A DNA stretch of 50,015 nt from the IMG/VR virus record IMGVR_UViG_2917403263_000001, one strand, 5' to 3'. This stretch comes from a virus (lineage: Duplodnaviria > Heunggongvirae > Uroviricota > Caudoviricetes). Both the position numbers and the translations under genes were made by a program. A model generated the notes under the pieces. That model worked only from the letters and a program-made list of their open reading frames with translations. It had not been told where the DNA came from and ran no database searches. This document shows, piece by piece, positions 2,715 through 31,068 of the stretch (positions within the stretch are counted from its first letter, which is position 1; each line of letters begins with the position of its first letter).

Positions 2715-3314
2715 TCAGAATTTATAACCGACACCAACGATGAAACCGTCAGTGCGCCAGTCGCCACTGCCGGAACCTTCATAAGCAAGGTCAATGGCCA
2801 CGGATTCGGTCGGGTTAAACTGCACGCCAGCCCCCCACGCCAGAGACGTGTTGCTGTGGCGACCGCCATCACTTCCGGTCAGCACATCGTGCGTTTTCCC
2901 CTTGTTGTCAGCTACGCGGAGATAATCCCCGGAAAACGTCGAAACACGGCTGTAAGCCACACCCGCCATCGCATAAGCACTGAACCATTCATTCACGCGC
3001 ACAGATGGTCCCGCCATCATGCTGAACCAGCGGTTATGCGCTGAATCTTCATGCCAGCGGGTATCGCTGTAACGGGTAATCTGGCGATTCTTGTCTCCTG
3101 CATAGCTGAATGACGTCACCAACCCCAGCGTGTCCGTAAATTCATAACGGTATTTCACGTTAATGCCCTTCAGGTCATCGTTGCCGGGCATATCAGTATG
3201 GGACTGAAGATACCCGCCGCTTAGTGTGGACTGATGCTCTACTGCACTCGCTGGCGTACCAGCGGCGACCAGCCAGACTACTGCAGACAGAATAACAGCA
3301 CATAATTTACGCAT
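2715..3314 (-). CDS. lom: Lom outer membrane protein (Ail/Lom family)
   Basis: 199 aa with signal peptide and C-terminal GVGYKF beta-barrel terminus; sits between J and stf as in lambda. Confidence 0.85.
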
Positions 3315-3383: not shown

Positions 3384-6300
3384 TCAACGAATACTGATAC
3401 CGGAAGCAGCTTTTTTGGTCACAATCACCGTACAGTCTGTGATGTTACCTGCGCCCCGATTGCCTTTCTGGAAAATCTTAAACTCCAGAGTGACGCTACC
3501 ACCACCACTCGGCATATCAATAACCGCGCTGTAACTACCGGGAATGGCTCCTTTAGTTTCTCTGGATGCGATTAATACGCCGTTTTTACGAACTTCAAAA
3601 CCATAACCCGTGTATCGCGTACCTCCCGGTTTATTACCGCTCCCCGGATCGTCATACGCCACACCGTTAAAAATAATGGGCGGAATAATGATTTGGCGGT
3701 CAAAGTTATGATCATCGTAAATGGTGACTGTAACCGTCCCGCCTGGTGTTTCCGTGTTACCCCACGTACCAGCCTGTTTCGGGAATGATTTGGATACAGT
3801 TTTAACGAAGTCACCTCTGACCTGGTTCGCCTCCAGCATGCCCTTAATCGTACAGTTTTCATTTACCGTGACGTTGTTGAGCGTCCCGGAGTTCGCATTC
3901 ACGTTACCGCTGATATCAGCATTTCTCGCCGTCAGCCGCCCGTCCGGTGTCAGGGAAAATGCCGGAGGATTACCACCGCTGGTAATGGTGGGAGCCGTCA
4001 GATATTTCAGAAACACTTCGTTCATGAATATCTGGTTGCCCTGCGCCACAAACATCGGCGTTTCATTCCCGTTTGCCGGGTCAATAAACGCGATACGGTT
4101 AGCGGCAACCAGGAACTGGCTCAGTTTGCCTTCCTCCGTATCCTCCATGCTGAGGCCAAGCCCCGCGACATAATGCCTGCCGTCTTCGGTCTGCTCAATT
4201 TTGACGCCCCACATGGCATTCCATTTATCGTTGGCGTCTTTCCACTCTTTCGAAAACTCCTCCAGTTTGCTGGCGTTATCCTCCGTCAGCTCGACTTTTT
4301 CCAGCAGCTCTTTACCGAGATGGGATTCGGTTATCTGGCCTTTGAAAAAATCCAGGTAACCTTCGGCATCATCGCTCGCCCGACCGACAGCCTCCACGAA
4401 TGCCGATTTGCCAACGGTGTTCACACTGCGGATATAAAAATAATAATCATGGCCCGGTTTGATATTGATACTGGCAGCTATCCAGTACAGCGCCGTGCCA
4501 AGATAGCGGGCTGCGGTTTCAACCTGCCTGATATCCGCAATCCGCTTTTCCGAGAACCAGAACTCAAACTGTACCGTCGGGTCATAAACGGCAAGATGCG
4601 GCGTTGCGGTTATCTGAAAATAGCCCGGCGTCAGCTCAATCCGCGACGGTGCTGCCGGTGCGGCAATCCGGAACGATACCGACGCCGGATCGCCCTGCTG
4701 CCCCCACGCATTTACTGCCCGGACTGTCAGCGTGTAACGCCCCAGCGCCAGTTGCCTGAAGCGGTATGTGGTTTCCGTCGTCCGGGCTGTGCTGACAAGC
4801 CGCTCACTGCCGTCATCCGCTGCCACGGTCAAGCGAAGCGTAAAGCTCACCCCCTTCACCACCTTCGGCGTGTCCCATCGCGCCAGTACCTGATATTCCC
4901 CGCTGTCTGCGGTGACTTCGGCAGTCAGGTGCTGCACCGCTGGCGGCGTGACACCATTCACCGTGCCACTCTGGTCGCCGTCAAAGTGCGCCCCGTTATC
5001 CACGATGGCCTCTTTTTCCGGCACATGCTGCACGGCGGTGATGGCATACGTGCCGTCGTCGTTCTCACGGATACTCACACAGCGGAACAGGCGCTGACGC
5101 AGCGTCGGCAGCTTCAGCCCCCACACGCTGTATTCGGCAACGCCGTCAGGAACACGGCTCACTTTTACCTTCACGCCGTCGGTGACGGACTGGACCTCCA
5201 CGCTGACCGGATTCCCCTGCCCGTCAACCAGGCTTATCAGCGTGGTGCCGGAGGATGGCAGCGTGATTTCACGGTCGAGCGTCAGCGTCCGGGTCTGGCT
5301 GTTCACCGCCAGCACACGCCCACCGATGCTGATCCCCGCATAGTCATCATCACAGATTTCAATGACATCGCCCGGTACATGGCGAAGCCCTTCTGCGCCC
5401 ACGCTGAAGTCCACGGTCTGCGTTTCCAGCAGCTCCGTTTTAATCAGCCACAGCCCGGCGCGGTGTGCCTGCCCCCGGCTGGTACAGCCAAAGGCATCCA
5501 TCTTCGTGACGTTACGACCGTAACGGAGAATGGCCTGCGTGTCCTCCACAAGCTCTGTCGCCGTCTCCCAGCCGTTATCCGGGTCAATCCAGTTCACCTC
5601 AACGGCATTATGGCGGTCCTTCAGGGCGCTGAAGCTGTAGCGGAACGGCGCGCCATCATCCGGCATCACCACATTACTGTGGTTATAGGTCCACACCTTA
5701 TCCGACGGTCGGTCCTGCACGAACGTCAGCGTCTGCCCGTTCCATACCGGCATACAGCGCATCGCCGAGCAGAAATCACTGAGAACATCCCACGCCTTAC
5801 GCTGTGTGGTCAGGTAAGCGTTACAGGTGATGCGCGGCTCCGTGCCACCAAAGCCGTCCGACACTGACTGGTCGCAATACTGGCCGATGACATACAACGC
5901 CCATTTATCCACATCCGCCGCACCAAGACGTTTCCCCATGCCGTAGCGCGGGTGGGTCAGCATATCCCACAGACACCAGGCCATATTGTCGCTGTATGCT
6001 GGCTTAAACGTTCCGTCCCAGATACCGCTGTATTGCCGCGTCTGCGGGTTATAGTTCGACGGCACCTGCAGAATGCGCCCGCGAAGATGATAATTACGGC
6101 TCACCTGCTGGCTGCCGAACTGCTCCGAATCCACCTGCACGCCGACCAGTGCCGTGTTCGGGTAGCACTGTTTCACATCGATGATTTCGGTGTATGACGA
6201 CCAGAGCGTTTTGTTCTGCAGCTGGTCTGTGGTGCTGTCCGGCGTCATCCTGCGCATCCGGATATTGAACGGGCGCGGCGGCAGGTTATCCACCACCACC

Positions 6301-6797
6301 GAGGCCAGATACTGCGAGGTGGTTTTGCCCTTAATGGTGATGTCTTTTTCCGTCACCCAGCCACCGTTACGCTGTATCTGAACCAGCAGGCGGACTTCCG
6401 ACGGATTCCGGTCCCCCTTTGAAGTGGTTTCCACCAGTGCCTGCACACCGAAGGTAAAGCGCAGACGGTCGATATTTGCAGACGTGATAGTCCGGGTGAT
6501 CGGCGTGTCGTATTTCACTTCCGTACCCAGTACCGTCTCGGAACCTGATGATTCAAATCCCTCCGGCGGTGACTGCTCCTGCTCACCTGCCCGGAACACC
6601 ACCGTGACACCGGAGATGTTGGTATTTCCCTCACTGTCCAGCACTGGCGTACTGTTCAGTAGCACGCTTTTTAATCCATCCACCGGACCTTCAATCGGCC
6701 CTTCGCTGATGGCATCGATCACACTCAGCAACTGCGTTGATTTGAGATTATCCTTCGCTTCGCGCGGGGTATGCCCCTTACTGCTGCCTTTACCCAT
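3384..6797 (-). CDS. J: Host specificity / tail tip protein J
   Basis: 1137 aa; N-terminus [24 protein letters not shown] as in lambda J; follows I. Confidence 0.9.
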
Positions 6798-8849: not shown

Positions 8850-9188
8850 CAGATCACCACTTCGTCAAACTGACACGAAAAATCGGTATAGGTGATATGT
8901 TCTGTCGCTGACCACGTTCGACACACCACTCTGATTTTTCTGTTAATACCCGGCGGGCGCCAAAAAAAAAGATTTATAGCCTTCATGCCGGGCTAAAAAT
9001 TTTTCAAATGAATCACGTTCATTCGCCTCAACTTTGAAATCACAGGTGAAAACGCGCAGAGAATGATTAAGTCCATTTGGACTTCGTTGCTCATAACCAT
9101 CGCCAAATCTTACAGTTTTTATCGATGGTTTATTTTCTGTTTTCATTCCATCCTCTGGTAACCAGTGAAATTCTTCCGTATTAGCCAC
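8849..9188 (-). CDS. M: Minor tail protein M, frame broken at an A9/T9 homopolymer
   Basis: 81-aa ORF (8943-9188) matches the N-terminal two-thirds of lambda M (VRFGDGY..); the C-terminal ~30 codons ([24 protein letters not shown]) continue in another frame after the homopolymer at 8962-8970; one base fewer restores a single ~111-aa ORF. Confidence 0.75.
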
Positions 9189-12100
9189 TTAACATTCCCC
9201 CATCACGTCGCATATTTAACAGAGTGCCCTGTACCCGCTGATCAACCATCCCCATAAGTGCTTTTATTGCCTGAGGGCCAATCTCTCCATTCTGGCCGTC
9301 ATTTTGAATAGTGATTTGGTATACAGGGGCATAGGTAATATCTCCGCCTCCATTACCACTTTTACTATTAATAGCTCTGACACCAAGAGAACCATCGGAA
9401 GTTCGTGTTAATGGCATAATGGCTTCCGGTCCAGCCTCACCAAAAACACCCGCCCCTTTTGCAAAAGCAAAAAATTGCGGGGAATCATAAATACCGTTCG
9501 AATACGTGCTCAATGATGGAGACTCATAAACACCGCCCTTTGCATTCGGAATAAATTTACTAATAGCACTCCCGATAGTTCCTAAAATCCCCCCAGAAGA
9601 ACTGTTACTAATGCTGTCGAAAATCCCAGTAATTGAAGCCTTTAATGCTATTCGACTAAGATCCGAAATCACGGAAGTAGCGAAAGAACGAAAATTTGCC
9701 TTGCCTGTCGTGACAAAATCACCCAGCGCATCGGTCATCCCATCAAACATCAGAGTCGTGGTTGATTTTATCTGCTCACTGATATACTTAGTGTCATCCA
9801 GCCAGTTATTAAATCCCTGGGAGGCACCACTAACCCAGTCTCCTGCCTGAATATCGAGCTGCTCGTTTTTCTGTCTGACAATTTCTTTTTCTCGTTCCAG
9901 AGAGTCATTCAGAGCCTGCATTTTCTCCTGAAAAACATGATCTGACATTCCACGGGATTTATCTGCATAGTCACGTTCAAGTTGCAGACGCTGGTTGTTA
10001 TATTCACGTTCAATCCGCAGTAATTCCTGCTGGCGTTGCTGATTTTTATCGCCAAGCCCATAACCAGCAATCTGAATATCATACCCCTGCTGACGATTAT
10101 CAATCGAAGCCTGCAATGAATCACGCCATGCGGCTATTTCGGCGGATTCCTTGATTAGCCTGTTATTTTTTTCAATCGCAACATTTTTCTCCATCAACGC
10201 GCTTATTTCTTCCCGGTGTAAGAGAAGCGATTTCTGATCCTGGGTTAATTTCGATAACGGTCGTGACTCCAGGTCGGCAATCTGCTGACGCCACTTAACC
10301 AGTTCCTGTTCAGAGGAACTTAATTTAACGGTCAATTCAGCTTGTGAACTTAGTAACGCATTCTGTTGATTCAGATGATCAATCATTCGTTGAGCAGCAT
10401 CATCCGAATAACCTTTCGCCTTTGGTTGCTTTGGATCTTTATAACGCTCATTTATTTGAGCGACAAGCTTATTATATTCTTCCTTTGAATACTGATTCTT
10501 TAGCTTTTCCAGTTTTGCAAGTTCACTGGCTCTCTGCTGCTCCCGAGTCTGATATTGTTTTGAAAAGGCATCTGCTTTCTGTCTGAGTTCAATTCCTTCC
10601 TGTTGTCGCTTGTTGTAATTGTTTATTGATGAATTTAGTACGTTCTGAGCAATTTTTTCTGATTGAAGTGCGCCTAATTGCTGTTTTAATTGAGCCAGCC
10701 TTTTATTTTGAGCACCACCATCTCCAATACCACCTACCCCGAAAACGCCTGGCCTGGTATTTTTTTCTATTTCATCAATTTGACGGAGAACATCTGAGAT
10801 TTTTTGATCAAGAGATACCTCACGCCCAACAGCCAACATGGAATCCCATGCCCATTTTGCGGAGTCAGCGACGGCTTTCCATGCAGTCTCAAGATAACCA
10901 AGATTTTCTTTAATCTGGTTGGTGCGCTGGATCATTGAGGATGAGTATGCTTCCGTCGCAATGCGAGCAGCCTCCTGCTGGTTCCCTTCATCCTGCAGCG
11001 CCTTAATCTGGTTATAAGTCGCCAGTGTCAGAAAATGGTACTGATCATTAAGTTTTGATATGGAACTGACAGGATCCTTTGCAATTTCATTGAAGTCATT
11101 AACAAGTTGATCGGTTGCTATTCCAGTTAATTCACTCGTTTTTACTATCGCAGCCGTCACTTGCTCCAGCGAATTGCTCGCTACCTTTCCCGAACGCACA
11201 AGCTGGTTTAATACTGCCGCCGCAGCGCCAGTTGTCGAATCAGCTGCATCCCCGGCACGTTGAGCTATATCGGCCAATTGCCCGCTGGTTGTCCCCAACT
11301 GATTTCCGGTAAGAATAAGAGATTTATTAAATTCTTCCTGCTCCTGAGAGCCTTTATAGTAAGCTAGCCCCAGGACACCAACGGCTGCTGCGGCCAGGGT
11401 AAAAGGATTAATTAATCCCAGCACATAAGAACCAACACCTTTGATCGCCGGGCCAATACCACCGAACATATCTTTTAGCTGACCGCCCTGCTGCATTAAC
11501 ACCATAAACGGTGACTGGCCTGTGGACAATCCAACCACAATATCAGTCATTTGTGCAGGCAACATGCGCATAGCAAAAGCCGTTTGTTTTGCCGACATTC
11601 CGGTTTTGCTTAGCTGCGATTGAGTAGCCTCAAGCTCACTCCGCATAGCACGGAGTTTTCCTGAAAGCTCCTCATACATTTCAGGAGAAAGCATCCCCTT
11701 GGCTTTTGCTTCGCTGAGTTGCTTTTGCTGCTCTGTCAGGCGGTTAAAAGCTGTTCCGACAGGATCGAGTTGAGCAATCAGACGTTGCAAAGCAGTAACT
11801 TGTTCATCATGCGCTTTTGCTGCTTCTCGTTCTGCCTGAGCCTCTCCTGTTAGCTCTCGCCGCGTTTCCTGTATTTTTCGGCTGTAATTATCAAACTGAG
11901 AGCCATTTATTTGCCCGGATGAAAGTGCAGCATTAAGTTCATCCTGCTGTTGTTCAAGATTTCTTAGCGCCGCTGCCAGAGGGTCGATCTTGTCCAGCAT
12001 TCTTTGAAAGGCCTGAACCTGCGCTTCCTGCTGGGCGGCAGCAAGTTTTCCGGCCTTCTCGGCTTCTCTCTGCGCTTGCGCAACCCCACTCAATTCCTCT

Positions 12101-12414
12101 GTGGTTTCATTAAGTTTACGGGCAAGAAATTCATATTCTTCTTTATCAATAAGCCCTTTATCGAAATATTTCTTTAATTCAGAATAGCGTCGACCGACAG
12201 TATCAATTGCGGCACCGACAGGATCAATAGCTGCTTTTAATTTTGCGAGCGCGTTCTTCTCATCTTCTGTTGCCTTAGTCACTTTCCCTGCACTGGTGGC
12301 AGCGTGTTCTCCAGCCTGCGTCATCTTTACTAACGCAGAAGACAGATTACCCACATTTTTCTCTGCTCCAGTGCTATCAATAATTATTGCGAGACGTGAA
12401 GTTTGCTCAGTCAT
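9181..12414 (-). CDS. Tail tape measure protein
   Basis: 1077 aa, coiled-coil rich, Gly-rich hydrophobic central segment; located between the chaperone genes and M. Confidence 0.85.
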
Positions 12415-12430
12415 TTAGTTATTCCGGACA

Positions 12431-12460
12431 AATAAAAAGCCCCGCTTGGGAAGCGGGGCC
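12431..12460 (-). terminator. Rho-independent terminator after the Ail/Lom-like moron
   Basis: gccccgc-ttgggaa-gcggggc hairpin followed by U-run on the minus strand. Confidence 0.65.
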
Positions 12461-12483
12461 AGACAACAGAGGGGCGTGACTTA

Positions 12484-13041
12484 TCAGAAACGGTAACCGA
12501 TACCAGCCATCCAGGTACCGACTTTCACATCACCCAACTTTGAGTATTCATAAGATGCATCAATTACCAGGTTTGGCATTGGGTTAATCTGGAAACCAGC
12601 ACCATACGCTGCAGAGGTTTTATCTGAAGATGCAGAAAATTCACCATCCCAGACATGAGCTTTTCCATATCCAAGACCAACCAGAGCATATGCACTCAGA
12701 TAGTCATTAAAACGATAGGACGGTCCAGCTGTCACGGAGAAATAATCAAGATCTCCAGATGCTAATTTGGTGTATTGTGGTTTTCCTTGAAGATCGGGAA
12801 CATAGCCATAAGCATCTTTGTTGTAATTGGTGTGCACAAAAGAACCTACCACACCCCAGTCGTTATTCAGTTCATAACGGTATTTAATATTAAAACCGTT
12901 CAGATCCTCGCTGGCACTATCAACTTTTGCATGGCTACGAGCATAACCAGCAGAAATAGTACTCTGCAGTAATTCAGCGTTTGCAATGCCAGTTGCAAAC
13001 AAAGTTGAAACTATAATGGTAGCCAACACTGCTTTCTTCAT
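12484..13041 (-). CDS. Ail/Lom/PagC-family outer membrane beta-barrel protein (moron)
   Basis: 185 aa, signal peptide MKKAVLATIIVSTLFATGIANA, C-terminal GIGYRF; AT-rich upstream region 13042-13210; own terminator; inserted between the chaperone and tape measure genes. Confidence 0.8.
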   Translation of the reverse strand: MKKAVLATIIVSTLFATGIANAELLQSTISAGYARSHAKVDSASEDLNGFNIKYRYELNNDWGVVGSFVHTNYNKDAYGYVPDLQGKPQYTKLASGDLDYFSVTAGPSYRFNDYLSAYALVGLGYGKAHVWDGEFSASSDKTSAAYGAGFQINPMPNLVIDASYEYSKLGDVKVGTWMAGIGYRF

Positions 13042-13211
13042 AAAATTACCTTTTTTATAAAAACATTGTTACGACAGCAAAAATTAAGCTGTGCGGCACA
13101 CATTAAAATACCGAGTATATTTGAAAGTCAACTATCAATTTCGCACTAAATCATATATGTGCATTAAAAATATACGTAATAATATAATAAAGTCGACATT
13201 TACTAAATATC

Positions 13212-13490
13212 TTATTCATCAAAATCGTCAGTTCGTGAAAAATAATTATCATCGAGTGCGAAAATCACGGCTTCGAATTCATCACCGTCTATTAATATCG
13301 GGTGTGCTTTTAAATAGTCGTGTATGTCAGATATTGACAAAGGTAGCGGAATCCCGGGCATGCCTGCATAACGCCTGGAACGAGACATTACTGAATACGC
13401 ATACAATAACTCACGGACAACGGGGTCTATTTCTGGCTCCGGGAGGCGGCGGCAACCTGAGTTTTTCTCGCTTCCATCTTGCCTTTTCAC
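13212..13490 (-). CDS. Possible T-frame extension of the tail assembly chaperone (or separate small ORF)
   Basis: Frame is open from 13540 down to the stop at 13212 and lies +1/-2 relative to the G-like ORF; it overlaps the G stop region. Confidence 0.35.
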   Translation of the reverse strand: MKRQDGSEKNSGCRRLPEPEIDPVVRELLYAYSVMSRSRRYAGMPGIPLPLSISDIHDYLKAHPILIDGDEFEAVIFALDDNYFSRTDDFDE

Positions 13491-13529
13491 CCTTTTCTCC
13501 CCCGAACTCCGATAACCACCGCTGGGCGG

Positions 13530-13991
13530 CTATGGCTTTTTTATCGTATCCTGCTTCTGCTGCTCTTTACCTTGGGCGATGCTGGCTGCTTCTGCAAGGA
13601 TCTGCCAGTACAACTCCGGATTCTGCTTAAGCAGCGCGATCCCTCGTTCTGGCGTATATTCCAGTGCAACCTCAACACCATCAACCAGTTCACCAACCCC
13701 TTTCCAGTCTTTCAGCAGATAACGAGCGGCATTATCAATGAGTAAATCATCAACAGAATCCACCTCGGAAACCTTTGCAATATCAAACTCCTTCGTTCCG
13801 ACGTGCAAGCTGGCATCCATTTTCTCAATGTGGCGACGGATTAATGCATTACGGGAGCGATACTGATCGTTATCGCTGCTTGCCACCAACAGTTTTAACC
13901 CGTCTACAGGTTTTAAGTCCTTCATTGGGGTAAACCAGCGTTCTCCACCGATGATAATTTTCTGATTAAGAATAAACATCCATAACCTCAT
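13530..13991 (-). CDS. Putative tail assembly chaperone (G-like)
   Basis: 153 aa, acidic; position between major tail protein and tape measure; ORF ends right after a slippery heptamer A_AAA_AAG. Confidence 0.55.
   Translation of the reverse strand: MRLWMFILNQKIIIGGERWFTPMKDLKPVDGLKLLVASSDNDQYRSRNALIRRHIEKMDASLHVGTKEFDIAKVSEVDSVDDLLIDNAARYLLKDWKGVGELVDGVEVALEYTPERGIALLKQNPELYWQILAEAASIAQGKEQQKQDTIKKP
13536..13542 (-). promoter_or_regulatory. Candidate ribosomal slippery heptamer A_AAA_AAG in the 0 frame of the G-like gene
   Basis: Coding strand reads ACG ATA AAA AAG CCA TAG; heptamer is in register with the ORF. Confidence 0.45.
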
Positions 13992-14039: not shown

Positions 14040-15002
14040 TCAACTAATCGCCTCAGCACTGGCTTTTGCGATCACGGCAGCCGGGGAGGCTTTTTTTCTG
14101 ATTATCGTAGGTGCTTCATCTGCTGCGGTAATGCTCAATTGAACCTGGATAATGTCGGTATTACCCCCATCAGGCCATTCACCTGACACCTGAACCTTCG
14201 GGAAACTGAAAGTGTATGCCCCCTCTCCATTCGAAAGCGTGAAGCTGAACGGAACTGTTTCTCCAGTCAGTGTTTTACTCCAGATTTCCCACGCAGCTTT
14301 AGACCATGAAAGCGTCACCGTACCGGACGGTGTAAAAGTAGTCGGGATATTTGCTCCTGCATAAGGCGAGCCAGTGCCGATACAACGCTGTGTCTGGAGT
14401 TTGTTATCGAACTGAATATCAAAACTGTCGATACAAAAACCGTTACCTCCGGCAACACCATTCAGGCTTACTGCTGAAACCTCCTTAAACGAATAACGTA
14501 GCTTTCCTGCACTATCCACAGGTTCGCCTTTGATAAAATTCGTATCATCGGCCTTTGATTCCCAGTCCAGCCCGGCAAAGGTTACGGTCGCCGTAATATC
14601 GCCGTCGTTAGGGATCTGCATTTTCCATGAGCCAACCTGCGCTCCTCTGACAACAGAGGCAATTCCGACATCGGACGCATAGGTCGCCAGAGAAAATGTT
14701 ATTCGCTCATTCCCCATTGTCAGAGAATCACCTGACCATTCCGCGCCGAAACAGGATGCAAGAAAATCATCATGTTGACCCCAGCGAAATTTGGTACCAA
14801 CATCACCGCCAACATCCACAGTGCCAGGCGTCGCCCCCTGAGCCATCCGGGAGCCACCAATCTCATTATTTTCGCCTTTATTCTGGGTGGGTTTTACTCC
14901 CCAGCTTGTGCGTTTTAATAAACTCCAGTCACCACTTGCTGGTGTGGTGCCTGCAACTGTCTCCCGGATAAATGCCGAGATAACCTTTGCACCTGAACTC
15001 AC
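14040..15002 (-). CDS. Major tail (tube) protein
   Basis: 320 aa, Gly/Thr/Ser-rich beta-type sequence; immediately upstream of the chaperone gene. Confidence 0.65.
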   Translation of the reverse strand: MSSGAKVISAFIRETVAGTTPASGDWSLLKRTSWGVKPTQNKGENNEIGGSRMAQGATPGTVDVGGDVGTKFRWGQHDDFLASCFGAEWSGDSLTMGNERITFSLATYASDVGIASVVRGAQVGSWKMQIPNDGDITATVTFAGLDWESKADDTNFIKGEPVDSAGKLRYSFKEVSAVSLNGVAGGNGFCIDSFDIQFDNKLQTQRCIGTGSPYAGANIPTTFTPSGTVTLSWSKAAWEIWSKTLTGETVPFSFTLSNGEGAYTFSFPKVQVSGEWPDGGNTDIIQVQLSITAADEAPTIIRKKASPAAVIAKASAEAIS

Positions 15003-23828: not shown

Positions 23829-24038
23829 TTAGTCCTGATTCTTATCCACCCTGAGTAGTTCGCGCAGGGCAAAGGCATCCCCTTTTCTGGCGAGCTTAAA
23901 CAATGCCGCCCGTAGCTCGGCCTCACCTTTCGCTCTGCCCTTACGGATGGACGCGTAAAAATTTGTCATTGCTTCCCGATTTTCTTTCAACCGGTTCAGA
24001 TCAACATCCAGAACGTCAGCGATTTGTTGTGCAGTCAT
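23829..24038 (-). CDS. Small HTH-containing protein upstream of TerS
   Basis: Probable start MTAQQIADVLDVDLNRLKEN; ~69 aa; alternative start at 24080. Confidence 0.4.
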   Translation of the reverse strand: MTAQQIADVLDVDLNRLKENREAMTNFYASIRKGRAKGEAELRAALFKLARKGDAFALRELLRVDKNQD

Positions 24039-24966
24039 CCGGCACGCTGCCAGAGACTCGACTTTCGAATACGGAATCATTTGTCACCCCCATTGATATG
24101 CAGGGTGTCTTCTTCCTGTATTTTTCGTGAAGGATTTTTACTGCAGCGTTGTTCCAGGTGACCTGATGGTGAATGCGTTTATGGCTGGCGCCCATCAGTG
24201 AGATTTTTACGCACGACGGCGCATACATGACGGAGTAAAAACTTTTAACGTAGGTTCCGGAATCCAGATACAGCTCGGTCATTCCGCCGCTGTTTTTCTG
24301 CGTCTGTTTCTGCCCTAACTGGACAGCACCGATCGTCATAAACAATTCACCACGGCGACCAAGATTCGTGTACGTATTCACATCCTCGTTAATGCGCCCC
24401 ATGAATGAGAACGGTCGTTCAACCGAACAGATAAAGCTGTTCATTGCCTTGCGTTTCACCCACGAAGCATGGCCGCCATTGTCACCAAGAAAATCCCCGC
24501 CCTGTGACATAGCGATGGAAAGCGCGGGTATTGATTCGTAATACGCCAGCATTTCAGAAAGGATCGCATCCAGTTTCCTTATCGGGAAATAGGCCTGGTC
24601 ATAGTTGCGATCCACACGAAACTGGAACTCGTGATAATCATCATCGAGCTGAATGAAGTATTTACACCCGACCAGTTTTGCCAGGTCGAAACAGGCATTA
24701 CGGGCGTAAAAAATTGAGCGGCGATCACCGAAATTATCGGCTTCGTCAAAACGACTGGCGATATCGGCTTTGGAAAACACCAGCACCTGTTCACCAAATT
24801 CAGCTATGTACTGATGCCGTGTCTTATCTTCATCATCAACAACGATAAAAATTTTCCCGGTATAGCCAGCACGACGCAACGTCCGGTAAGTCAGAACTTT
24901 GTCCGGTCGCCCGTGAGTCAGAATAAAGGCGCAAAAATCATCACGCATATTCCTTCTCCCCGCCAT
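24016..24966 (-). CDS. GT-A-like (DxD/DDD motif) protein of unknown function
   Basis: 316 aa; AFILTHGRPD, KIFIVVDDED, YFIQLDDDY motifs suggest a nucleotide-sugar transferase-like fold; translationally coupled to the upstream ParB-like gene. Confidence 0.4.
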   Translation of the reverse strand: MAGRRNMRDDFCAFILTHGRPDKVLTYRTLRRAGYTGKIFIVVDDEDKTRHQYIAEFGEQVLVFSKADIASRFDEADNFGDRRSIFYARNACFDLAKLVGCKYFIQLDDDYHEFQFRVDRNYDQAYFPIRKLDAILSEMLAYYESIPALSIAMSQGGDFLGDNGGHASWVKRKAMNSFICSVERPFSFMGRINEDVNTYTNLGRRGELFMTIGAVQLGQKQTQKNSGGMTELYLDSGTYVKSFYSVMYAPSCVKISLMGASHKRIHHQVTWNNAAVKILHEKYRKKTPCISMGVTNDSVFESRVSGSVPDDCTTNR

Positions 24967-25729
24967 GCATGATCTCCACCATGTGCTGCGTCATCCGGAC
25001 AAATCCATTTTCAATAGCCTGCTGGTAATCAATGATCACCAGCGCCGACTCCTCAAAAAGGCGCTGAATTTCAGCAGGAGCGTGAGCGTAATAGTCCGCA
25101 ATTCTGCTGAAATTAAACACCGTGTGACGTTCTGCCGCACACAGGAGGAATTTTTCGATATCAGGCTCAAGGGACGCCGAACGTATCCGGCTGATCAGCT
25201 CCTGAGTTTTCGTATCGTCGTACAGTTCACTGATATCCGGTTTACCGCCCGACGGCTCATAAACAGGCGTATCAATTTTCGTCGTATAAGGCTCCTCCTC
25301 ATTTCCTGTACCGGGCAAAACATCCGTCAACAGTTCATCAATTTCTGTCGGGCTGAATCCTGTCAGGGAAATATCAAAATCAGCATTGATTAGCTCCGAC
25401 AGCTCCATCCGTAACAGATCTTCATCCCAGCCAGCATTCATCGGCAGGCGATTATCTGCCAGGCGGTACGCCTTTTTCTGATCATCCGTCAGACCAGACA
25501 GAACGATGACCGGAACGGAATCCATTTTGAGCACTTCAGCCGCCATAACGCGACCGTGACCAGCAATAATTTCGCCCTTTTCATCAATCAGCACCGGATT
25601 AGTCCAGCCGAATTGCTTAATGCTTTCTACCAGTTGTGCCACCTGCTCAGGGCTGTGTGTCCTGGCATTGTGTGCATACGGAGACAGTTCTTGTAACGGG
25701 CGATAGACGATCTTCAATTTCTCGCTCAT
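24941..25729 (-). CDS. ParB/Srx-like nuclease domain protein
   Basis: 262 aa; N-terminal ParB-N motif PVLIDEKGEIIAGHGRVMAAEVL; unknown C-terminal domain. Confidence 0.7.
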   Translation of the reverse strand: MSEKLKIVYRPLQELSPYAHNARTHSPEQVAQLVESIKQFGWTNPVLIDEKGEIIAGHGRVMAAEVLKMDSVPVIVLSGLTDDQKKAYRLADNRLPMNAGWDEDLLRMELSELINADFDISLTGFSPTEIDELLTDVLPGTGNEEEPYTTKIDTPVYEPSGGKPDISELYDDTKTQELISRIRSASLEPDIEKFLLCAAERHTVFNFSRIADYYAHAPAEIQRLFEESALVIIDYQQAIENGFVRMTQHMVEIMHGGEKEYA

Positions 25730-29749: not shown

Positions 29750-29824
<75 letters not shown>

Positions 29825-29827
29825 ATA

Positions 29828-29903
<76 letters not shown>

Positions 29904-30232: not shown

Positions 30233-30778
30233 TCACTTTGCAATAGTTTTTTTTTGTGCCGTGAACATTGGTTTATAAAGCATAAATTCAGCAATCATCA
30301 GCCATTGATCGATACGACGTCGACAGGTAATTAATGTCCAGTCAGGATGATTTTCATTTAACTGCTCTGCCATTTTCAGTTTGCTCATTCCCCGCCCTTC
30401 ATATCGTTGTCGGAGGATGCTAATTAATCCCGGATACTCGACCAGCACTTCGCTAATTACCCGATCAATACATAACGCCTCGGCATCAGTACAATGAGAC
30501 AACCAGCTTTTCTGCTTACCGTCGAGCATTTCCCGCAAAAATGCCTCCAGTTCCGTCTTATCAATTCCCGCTTTTTTCATCCTGCGCAGAGCTTCATTGA
30601 TGGCTGTTTTCGTCAATTTTTTGGATGCCAGCAACTGGTTAAACATATTCCCCGTCTTACCGCCGCCAATATACGACCAGCGCCCCCACATGCGCAGTTT
30701 TCCCTGAATCCAGACACTTTCCAGCGTGGTGAGACGAAGGTGTTCCCCGCTTTTTCCTGTATTTGTTGGGTAAATCAT
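30233..30778 (-). CDS. Q: Late antiterminator Q
   Basis: Start MIYPTNTGKSGEHL (SD aggaagg); ~181 aa; position directly upstream of a short terminated leader, tRNAs and lysis genes; Q-family assignment recalled. Confidence 0.65.
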   Translation of the reverse strand: MIYPTNTGKSGEHLRLTTLESVWIQGKLRMWGRWSYIGGGKTGNMFNQLLASKKLTKTAINEALRRMKKAGIDKTELEAFLREMLDGKQKSWLSHCTDAEALCIDRVISEVLVEYPGLISILRQRYEGRGMSKLKMAEQLNENHPDWTLITCRRRIDQWLMIAEFMLYKPMFTAQKKTIAK

Positions 30779-31068
30779 AAATAACCTTCCTTTCTCCAGA
30801 TTTCTTGTGTGCGAAAAACACCTTCTGCATGCATCAGGCGTAATTCTTCTTTGGTGTAATCGCTGGTTTTTACTCTCCCGTCGATTAAATCGTGGCATGA
30901 GCTACAGGCAATTGCAGCCTGCATATCGTGTGGCTTTGTCGCTGTTCCACACGTCCCCGCCAGTCTGTAATGCGCCAGCACGGAAGTTTCGGGATTGTGA
31001 TTGCAGTACCCAGGAATTCTGACCTGACACATCTGGCCCCGCGCCGCTTTACGTAAATCTGCCATCAC
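30775..31068 (-). CDS. ybcO: YbcO-like (DUF1364) Cys-rich putative nuclease
   Basis: 97 aa MMADLRKAARGQMCQVRIPGYCNHNPETSVLAHYRL..CSSCHD; coupled to Q (4-nt overlap). Confidence 0.65.
   Translation of the reverse strand: MMADLRKAARGQMCQVRIPGYCNHNPETSVLAHYRLAGTCGTATKPHDMQAAIACSSCHDLIDGRVKTSDYTKEELRLMHAEGVFRTQEIWRKEGYL

Follow-up and report, generated by a model that had tools for sequence, protein, structure and literature searches.

An Ail-like outer-membrane protein gene, probably a moron, at the chaperone/tape-measure junction of a Rac-family prophage

Introduction

The junction between the tail assembly chaperone and tape measure genes is the archetypal moron site, the one for which the term 'moron' was introduced. 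It is known from gene 15 of phage HK97, the first moron to be described, whose product gp15, a membrane protein, prevents the injection of DNA (PMC3594210). The HK97 record lists G/GT with its -1 frameshift, gp15, a putative terminator, 12 nt and the tape measure gene. This gene 15 moron is reportedly treated by Juhala et al. in 2000 and by Cumby et al. in 2012. Lambda lom, made in lysogens and regarded as a lysogenic-conversion gene, promotes adhesion (PMC7067206, PMC3594210), and the roles of Yersinia Ail comprise complement resistance, adhesion or aggregation, and robustness of the envelope coupled to lipopolysaccharide (LPS) (PMC8508112). Here we analyze a 50,015-nt stretch of viral DNA (IMG/VR record IMGVR_UViG_2917403263_000001, referred to as the window) that represents a Rac-family lambdoid prophage and carries, at the chaperone/tape-measure (T/H) junction, a gene for an Ail-like outer-membrane protein in addition to a lambda-type lom gene. 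We consider it likely that the T/H region is a moron with outer-membrane cargo, a self-contained unit within the late operon of the prophage.

Results

The inserted gene encodes an Ail-like outer-membrane barrel

The gene, its product and the two boundaries of the insertion site are located as follows.

12484-13041, minus strand: Ail-like gene, putative moron cargo, 185 amino acids (aa), ATG start, tandem stops TGA TAA, intact
Residues 1-22, nucleotides 12976-13041, minus strand: signal peptide of the Ail-like precursor, MKKAVLATIIVSTLFATGIANA with an AxA cleavage site followed by ELLQ, read from the sequence
Residues 23-185: predicted mature barrel of 8 strands, C-terminus GYRF
9181-12414, minus strand: tail tape measure gene (TMP_2 9e-81, PHROG_24), downstream boundary of the insertion site
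13212-13490, minus strand: T-domain segment of the G-T tail-assembly chaperone (PHROG_1189 1.6e-29), upstream boundary of the insertion site

An earlier reading of the DNA made without database searches (the sequence-only reading) had placed an Ail/Lom-type barrel gene at 12484-13041. These coordinates are right, with the gene on the minus strand, and Pfam, PHROG and structure comparison agree on its nature. The protein matches Pfam Ail_Lom (PF06316; 6.9e-32, 111.2 bits, cut-off 23) and OMP_b-brl (5e-22, 79.3 bits, cut-off 28.7), and among the PHROGs it matches PHROG_108 ('Lom outer membrane protein', 2.7e-47). In a sequence search of the PDB, Y. pestis Ail (3qra, 7e-48) ranks above OmpX (1e-31) and a Lom chain (9wso, 1e-14); no paper associated with entry 9wso ('Outer membrane protein lom') was found. 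The AlphaFold2 (AF2) model, built with 45 homologues, has a pLDDT of 87 and places an N-terminal signal helix apart from a barrel of eight long strands. Foldseek aligns this model with Ail (3qrc) at a TM-score of 0.92-0.93 and 52-54% identity and with OmpX (1qj9) at a TM-score of 0.92 and 41% identity. The signal peptide aligns with those of Ail, OmpX and Lom, and F185, the C-terminal aromatic residue of the signal recognized by the β-barrel assembly machinery (BAM), is invariant in the 45 homologues.

Three orthology assignments were considered and rejected, one of which involves the second outer-membrane gene of the window.

2715-3314, minus strand: lambda-type lom, second outer-membrane gene (Ail_Lom 1.3e-117), between gpJ and the side tail-fibre gene
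3384-6797: gpJ

The Ail-like protein scores 133.3 bits against the NCBIfam equivalog model for OmpX (NF006917, cut-off 176) and 96.6 bits against that for Rck/PagC-type complement-resistance proteins (NF011777, cut-off 258). As for lambda Lom, the protein is 33% identical to the lom product of the window and is encoded at a different position; the gene at 2715-3314, also recognized in the sequence-only reading as lambda-like lom, fits by both similarity and position instead. The two outer-membrane proteins are thus distinct at 33% identity, as had been supposed. Because its scores lie below the equivalog cut-offs, the product of 12484-13041 is, by sequence, an Ail-like member of the family and not an orthologue of OmpX, Rck/PagC or Lom.

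Comparison of the window allele with that of E. coli S1-INA-02-A yields a synonymous divergence (dS) of 0.56 and a nonsynonymous divergence (dN) of 0.066; the resulting dN/dS of 0.12 indicates that the gene is kept by purifying selection. Species-representative genomes contain no close relative of the protein, the best being 54% identical (Citrobacter braakii) and located in a non-tail context, and no protein of the sequenced phages in GenBank is more than 60% identical to it. Near-identical copies (98-99%) were encountered only in unannotated metagenome and IMG/VR data.

The T/H junction is mostly empty and occasionally filled with varied cargo

Two further tail genes upstream of the insertion site were used for comparing loci.

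13530-13991, minus strand: G-like tail assembly chaperone of the YdaY family (PHROG_313 5e-47; homologues match PF27119 Phage_YdaY)
14040-15002, minus strand: tube protein gene

The T/H junction measures 796 bp in the window and 152 bp in E. coli M3, a strain that encodes tube, G, T and tape measure proteins with 95-99% identity to those of the window. Searching IMG/VR with the G protein yielded 80 loci that were scored at this junction. An empty junction with a spacer of about 150 bp (179-185 bp as measured) is found in 56 of them, and six more have a minimal empty junction of 90-91 bp. Seven loci hold an outer-membrane allele, one being that of the window (98.9%) and six being about 60% identical to it, another seven hold unrelated cargo of 0.5-1.8 kb, and four were not scorable. 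In the empty-junction relatives, identity is 90-100% over the proteins encoded on either side, namely G, tube and tape measure (97-100% for tube and G). An otherwise conserved junction is therefore interrupted in the window, in line with the sequence-only reading, and its being empty in E. coli M3 and in 62 otherwise collinear IMG/VR loci is the presence/absence pattern that defines a moron. A search for repeats at the insert revealed no flanking direct or inverted repeats pointing to transposition.

Among 5426 complete E. coli genomes the junction is present in 1071, 20 of which carry the outer-membrane cassette there. Alleles located at the T/H junction of E. coli and Salmonella prophages show 98.9%, 85%, about 68% and about 60% amino-acid identity to the window protein. 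Two alleles of about 68%, one from Salmonella and one from E. coli, occupy this junction, the Salmonella one beside YafO-toxin-like and AntA genes. Each of the 12 cassettes examined has an intact open reading frame (ORF). For the divergent alleles, identity is 72-81% in the core of the barrel and 34-60% in the extracellular loops; for the S1-INA-02-A allele, the closest, both values lie within 85-88%, that of the loops being 85%. A conserved core with varied loops is the pattern to be expected where diversifying pressure acts on a protein exposed at the surface whose scaffold is conserved.

In distant relatives, the junction is filled with unrelated cargo at the following positions (locus handle, coordinates).

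L155, 4743-5280: unrelated cargo
L160, 4746-5362: unrelated cargo
L162, 4743-6575: unrelated cargo
L163, 4746-5951: unrelated cargo
L165, 3692-5045: unrelated cargo
L166, 4737-5583: unrelated cargo
L167, 4743-5461: unrelated cargo
L168, 5001-8226: unrelated cargo

The kinds of cargo include a DUF2545 plus zinc-ribbon membrane protein, a KilA-N protein, a transmembrane (TM)-anchored protein of 132-152 aa, an HExxH protein encoded in the opposite orientation, several others of unknown function and, in Salmonella, the YafO-toxin-like and AntA genes that adjoin the Ail-like gene. Pfam and PHROGs mostly return 'unknown function' for these other cargos, and PADLOC gave no match for the Ail-like protein or for eight other junction cargos. 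At least four divergent outer-membrane alleles and some seven unrelated cargos occupy the T/H junction, so that in this lineage cargo is frequently housed there and the junction represents a convenient natural system for studying the turnover of morons.

The spacer of the empty junction (L088 4770-4920, also in the E. coli M3 locus L003) can accommodate a 21-codon ORF, MMLLEKSIAWPRNRYIYYYVA, with a hairpin terminator directly after it. This ORF might be a tiny moron or the remnant of one.

A promoter-like element is conserved in the AT-rich DNA upstream of the insert, and a terminator-like hairpin follows the gene

The noncoding elements on either side of the Ail-like gene are listed below.

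13042-13211, minus strand: AT-rich upstream region, 26% GC, 170 bp, between the T stop codon and the start codon of the Ail-like gene
13102-13131, minus strand: best promoter candidate, -35 TTGACT (13126-13131), 18-nt spacer, -10 TTTAAT (13102-13107)
13169-13196, minus strand: second promoter-like site from a consensus scan, TCGACT, 16 nt, TATATT, 9/12 matches; not conserved in other alleles
13049-13052, minus strand: Shine-Dalgarno sequence AAGG, 7 nt upstream of the Ail-like start codon
12430-12460, minus strand: intrinsic-terminator-like hairpin, GGCCCCGCTT-CCC-AAGCGGGGC(T) then TTTTTATTT

Base composition sets the insert apart from its surroundings, a further mark of a moron. The upstream region is indeed very AT-rich, as had been noticed at the outset, with 26% GC, and the Ail-like ORF has 42% GC, unlike the tape measure, G and tube genes at 45-50% and lom and J at 54-56%. 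Alignment of the upstream regions of four divergent allele groups uncovers an invariant block, ...ATAGTTGACT, in which GTTGACT is kept while the surrounding DNA is variable. Across the same groups, a T-rich -10-like hexamer is kept at a fixed distance from the -35 block. Transcription is predicted to start near 13095, leaving a 5' untranslated region (5'UTR) of about 54 nt. Inspection of the upstream region by eye did not reveal a convincing PhoP box or other regulator site.

Two hairpins can be drawn in the predicted 5'UTR (13039-13095, minus strand), one at the 5' end (ACAGC/GCTGT) and an AU-rich one in which the start codon is paired and the Shine-Dalgarno sequence lies in the loop. Similar hairpins can be drawn for the alleles of about 60% identity, the S1-INA-02-A allele folding differently, and the folding energy of the window sequence is not unusual (z -1.1).

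Directly 3' of the gene lies a GC-rich hairpin followed by a T-run, 23 nt past the stop codon and 16 nt ahead of the tape measure ATG. Its stem (12438-12460) comprises 10 bp with 7 GC pairs, and its calculated stability is -20.6 kcal/mol. The hairpin is kept across alleles while its loop varies. A survey of loci L088-L167, covering the stretch about 10-70 nt ahead of where each tape measure gene starts, located in all 26 distinct sequence types (77 loci) a GC hairpin with T-run, 10-20 nt upstream of the ribosome-binding site of the tape measure gene. Every junction form has such a hairpin, whether the site is empty or filled; the sequences differ and the architecture is constant. The terminator thus belongs to the junction no less than to the moron. 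The earlier attribution of a terminator to the insert itself consequently holds in that a strong hairpin follows the gene, but not in that it would distinguish the moron from an empty site. An Rfam scan of 12300-13600 detected no known RNA element, its two sub-threshold matches both falling on the terminator hairpin.

The prophage context and the G-T frameshift gene

One end of the prophage carries intR, recE and recT. The structural module shows about 95% identity to those of E. coli phages, and the late genes lie on the minus strand. The position of the insert between chaperone and tape measure genes had been stated correctly in the sequence-only reading; what had been taken as the chaperone ORF adjoining it is the T part of a G-T frameshift gene. 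A slippery heptamer, A_AAA_AAG, is intact at 13536-13542 (minus strand), two codons before the TAG stop of G, and in relatives the -1 frame runs from this heptamer for 102-116 codons across the T domain. By sequence, G-T is a canonical frameshift gene and the ORF next to the insert is its T part, read in the -1 frame in relatives. The window contains an extra C within GCCGCCGCCTCCCGG (13439-13453), where relatives read GCCGCCG-CTCCCGG. This nucleotide displaces the T segment out of the -1 frame into the frame of G, and the frameshift product of the window would end after 43 codons, at 13411-13413. Either the extra C is a sequencing error or the prophage is unable to assemble tails.

Three other parts of the prophage were recorded in passing. 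Genes for tRNA-Gly(TCC) and tRNA-Thr(TGT) occupy 29750-29903 (minus strand), with the lysis genes on one side and the Q-like antiterminator on the other. At 24016-25729 (minus strand), a gene with a TET-associated glycosyltransferase (TAGT) domain (4e-35) adjoins a ParB_N domain gene; the pair is located between the lysis genes and the terminase/head genes, just upstream of the latter. The combination of the two domains is suggestive of a phage DNA-modification module. The segment 32264-34037 (minus strand) encodes a protein with helix-turn-helix and Peptidase_M78 (ImmA/IrrE-like) domains beside an ORF of 213 aa for which Pfam gives no match.

Related prophages carry the gene with and without lom

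The T/H gene is annotated in RefSeq as 'Ail/Lom family outer membrane beta-barrel protein' in E. coli S1-INA-02-A, in the ETEC1730 group and in the group of SA31-1, an LT-II enterotoxigenic E. coli (ETEC). Both outer-membrane genes, the one at the T/H junction and lom after gpJ, are annotated by PGAP in S1-INA-02-A and in the ETEC1730 group; the neighbouring tape measure gene of ETEC1730 is interrupted by IS1. The prophage of SA31-1 has the T/H gene and no lom, so the T/H and post-gpJ sites vary independently. Having two outer-membrane genes in one tail operon had been called unusual, a judgment we would revise, since the combination is uncommon and not unique, being present in S1-INA-02-A and ETEC1730. 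HK97 provides a precedent for the site, and Gifsy-2 and Fels-1 provide precedents for Lom/Ail morons within tail operons away from the lambda position.

The SA31-1 prophage (L087 1055-2189), whose allele is about 60% identical to that of the window, also encodes the A and B chains of the LT-II heat-labile enterotoxin, with lysis genes, toxin and terminase following in that order. Because the LT-II prophage also holds an allele of the T/H gene, this phage lineage carries several independent virulence-type cargos. A literature search located no paper in which an Ail/Lom gene and a tape measure gene are both mentioned, nor one on this gene; Jobling 2016, on LT-II Rac-like prophages, may mention it.

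Discussion

How a moron at this site would function

The claim that the insert is a moron, made from the DNA letters at the outset, is borne out by its presence and absence in collinear prophages, an AT-rich upstream region with a promoter-like element, a terminator and an orientation matching that of the late operon. In a lysogen, a sigma-70-type promoter within the AT-rich DNA would direct synthesis of a monocistronic mRNA of about 0.65 kb, and since this mRNA would end at the hairpin before the tape measure gene, the tail genes would stay silent. Late transcription must read through the hairpin, for which the Q-type antiterminator of the prophage offers the classical explanation.

30233-30898: Q-type antiterminator

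During lytic growth, the Q-antiterminated late transcript would pass the terminator and the insert would thus not polarize the tail genes. Read-through by antitermination is the classical reason that morons are tolerated in late operons (Juhala et al. 2000, as related in PMC3594210). The precursor would be exported by Sec and cleaved after ANA, and BAM would insert the barrel via its C-terminal YRF, giving eight strands and four surface loops. At the cell surface, by analogy with Ail, Rck, PagC and Lom, the protein would most likely confer complement resistance, adhesion or both, and possibly LPS-linked stabilization of the envelope as well. Homology to Ail suggests that the barrel should change the surface interactions of the lysogen through complement resistance, adhesion or aggregation, or LPS-coupled robustness of the envelope; within the moron explanation, the chances of a serum-resistance or adhesion phenotype are roughly even.

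Several observations weigh against this picture. The expression of the Ail-like gene in a lysogen, the read-through of the hairpin and the surface phenotype are matters that we infer. The candidate promoter is a match to consensus only, with a spacer of 18 nt. In a generic scan, promoter-like sites in the upstream region were not in excess of those in shuffled sequence, and the top pick was the non-conserved site at 13169-13196 and not TTGACT/TTTAAT. The terminator is not creditable to the moron alone, because every junction form has such a hairpin. Through its broken G-T product, the prophage of the window may be tail-defective, which is without bearing on a moron expressed from the lysogen. 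The remaining points concern residues of Ail named in the literature, which were mapped onto the window protein through a HMMER alignment that is uncertain in the loops. In LPS cluster I, R14, K16, K139 and K144 of Ail correspond to H37, K39, K168 and K173, so that three of four basic residues are kept, while in LPS cluster II the window protein retains one of six (K97, corresponding to K127). The vitronectin/serum residues F54, F68, S102 and F104 correspond approximately to Y80, L98, G133 and F135, two of the four not being conserved. Because the functional residues of Ail are only partly kept and the loops differ, a specific ligand is not inferable.

Alternative explanations

The Ail-like protein could serve the phage instead, through superinfection exclusion at the outer membrane, through masking of a receptor or as a decoy that spares progeny from debris, an explanation that we regard as unlikely. 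Exclusion of this sort would resemble the action of Cor and Llp on FhuA. The homology of the protein leads to Ail, a host- and LPS-interaction protein, PADLOC returned no match and the prophage already has lom, all of which speak against this explanation. To our knowledge, no protein of the Ail/Lom family has been shown to exclude phages. A role in the service of the phage would nevertheless agree with the behavior of HK97 gp15, which blocks DNA injection and is encoded at the identical junction (PMC3594210), and with the nature of other junction cargos, as the DUF2545 plus zinc-ribbon membrane protein and the TM-anchored protein of 132-152 aa are also predicted envelope proteins. Co-orientation with the late operon implies that the protein would be made in lytic growth too, and Y. 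pestis Ail can act as a phage receptor according to the reference list of PMC11267873, implying that loops of this family meet phages. The strong diversification of the loops fits phage pressure as well as immune pressure. That the T/H junction would be a dedicated slot for envelope-targeted cargo acting on phage entry, occupied by the inner-membrane gp15 in HK97, by membrane proteins of unknown function in relatives and here by the Ail-like outer-membrane barrel as an exclusion or receptor-masking factor, is in our estimation quite improbable; if true, phages and not the immune system would drive the diversification of the loops and the protein would not be a virulence factor.

There is very little to suggest that the Ail-like gene is an inert passenger or decaying remnant lacking a current function. 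Its rarity (20 of about 1071 junction-bearing E. coli genomes), the broken G-T gene of the window and the IS1-split tape measure gene of ETEC1730 are compatible with decay, but the ORF is intact in 12 of 12 cassettes, dN/dS is 0.12 at a dS of 0.56, and the core, signal peptide, Shine-Dalgarno sequence, -35 block and terminator are kept over alleles whose proteins diverge by as much as 40%. Finally, a structural or assembly component of the tail, which the sequence-only reading had named as the finding that would speak against it, is hardly conceivable: only the location within the tail operon favors it, the homology and modeled fold point to an outer-membrane barrel with a cleavable Sec signal, a membrane-embedded Ail/OmpX-like 8-stranded structure and a C-terminal aromatic BAM signal rather than to a tail part, and most phages with near-identical tail genes (tube and G 97-100%) do without the gene.

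For the moron reading, the kind of element was already known, as were its location at T/H, the family of the protein and indeed the pairing of two outer-membrane genes, and current understanding is unchanged. If the Ail-like gene is expressed and its product active, the prophage would provide its host with two different barrels of a family associated with complement resistance and adhesion, which would bear on the contribution of Rac-family prophages to fitness in animals.

Comparison with known systems

Among characterized proteins, Ail of Y. pestis and Y. enterocolitica is closest to the product of the T/H gene, with 52-54% identity, a TM-score of 0.92-0.93, 8 strands and 4 loops. In contrast to the phage-borne gene described here, ail is chromosomal; extracellular loops EL1-EL3 differ between the two proteins and EL2 is 9 residues longer in the window protein. 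Lambda lom and the lom gene of the window share with the T/H gene the PF06316 domain, a small outer-membrane barrel as product and a location within the tail region in late-gene orientation. The lom product of the window is, however, only 33% identical, has a much longer EL3 and is encoded after gpJ instead of before the tape measure gene.

With respect to the site, HK97 gene 15 is the nearest counterpart. Both cargos occupy the same junction next to a short intergenic region, are co-oriented with the late operon, are followed by a terminator and then 12-23 nt up to the start of the tape measure gene, and are missing from close relatives. The cargos themselves have no sequence relationship, that of HK97 being a 62-aa inner-membrane, YebO-like exclusion protein and that of the window a 185-aa outer-membrane barrel. 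Ail/Lom-family morons inside a tail operon and away from the lambda position are also found in Gifsy-2 (STM1043), where the gene adjoins the virulence gene sodCI, and in Fels-1 (STM0920). These differ from the T/H gene in lying between gpM and gpL homologues, and their products are 39-42% identical to the window protein. Finally, the prophages of S1-INA-02-A, the ETEC1730 group and the LT-II ETEC SA31-1 group (Rac site) carry the same gene at the same junction, with alleles 85% or about 60% identical to that of the window.

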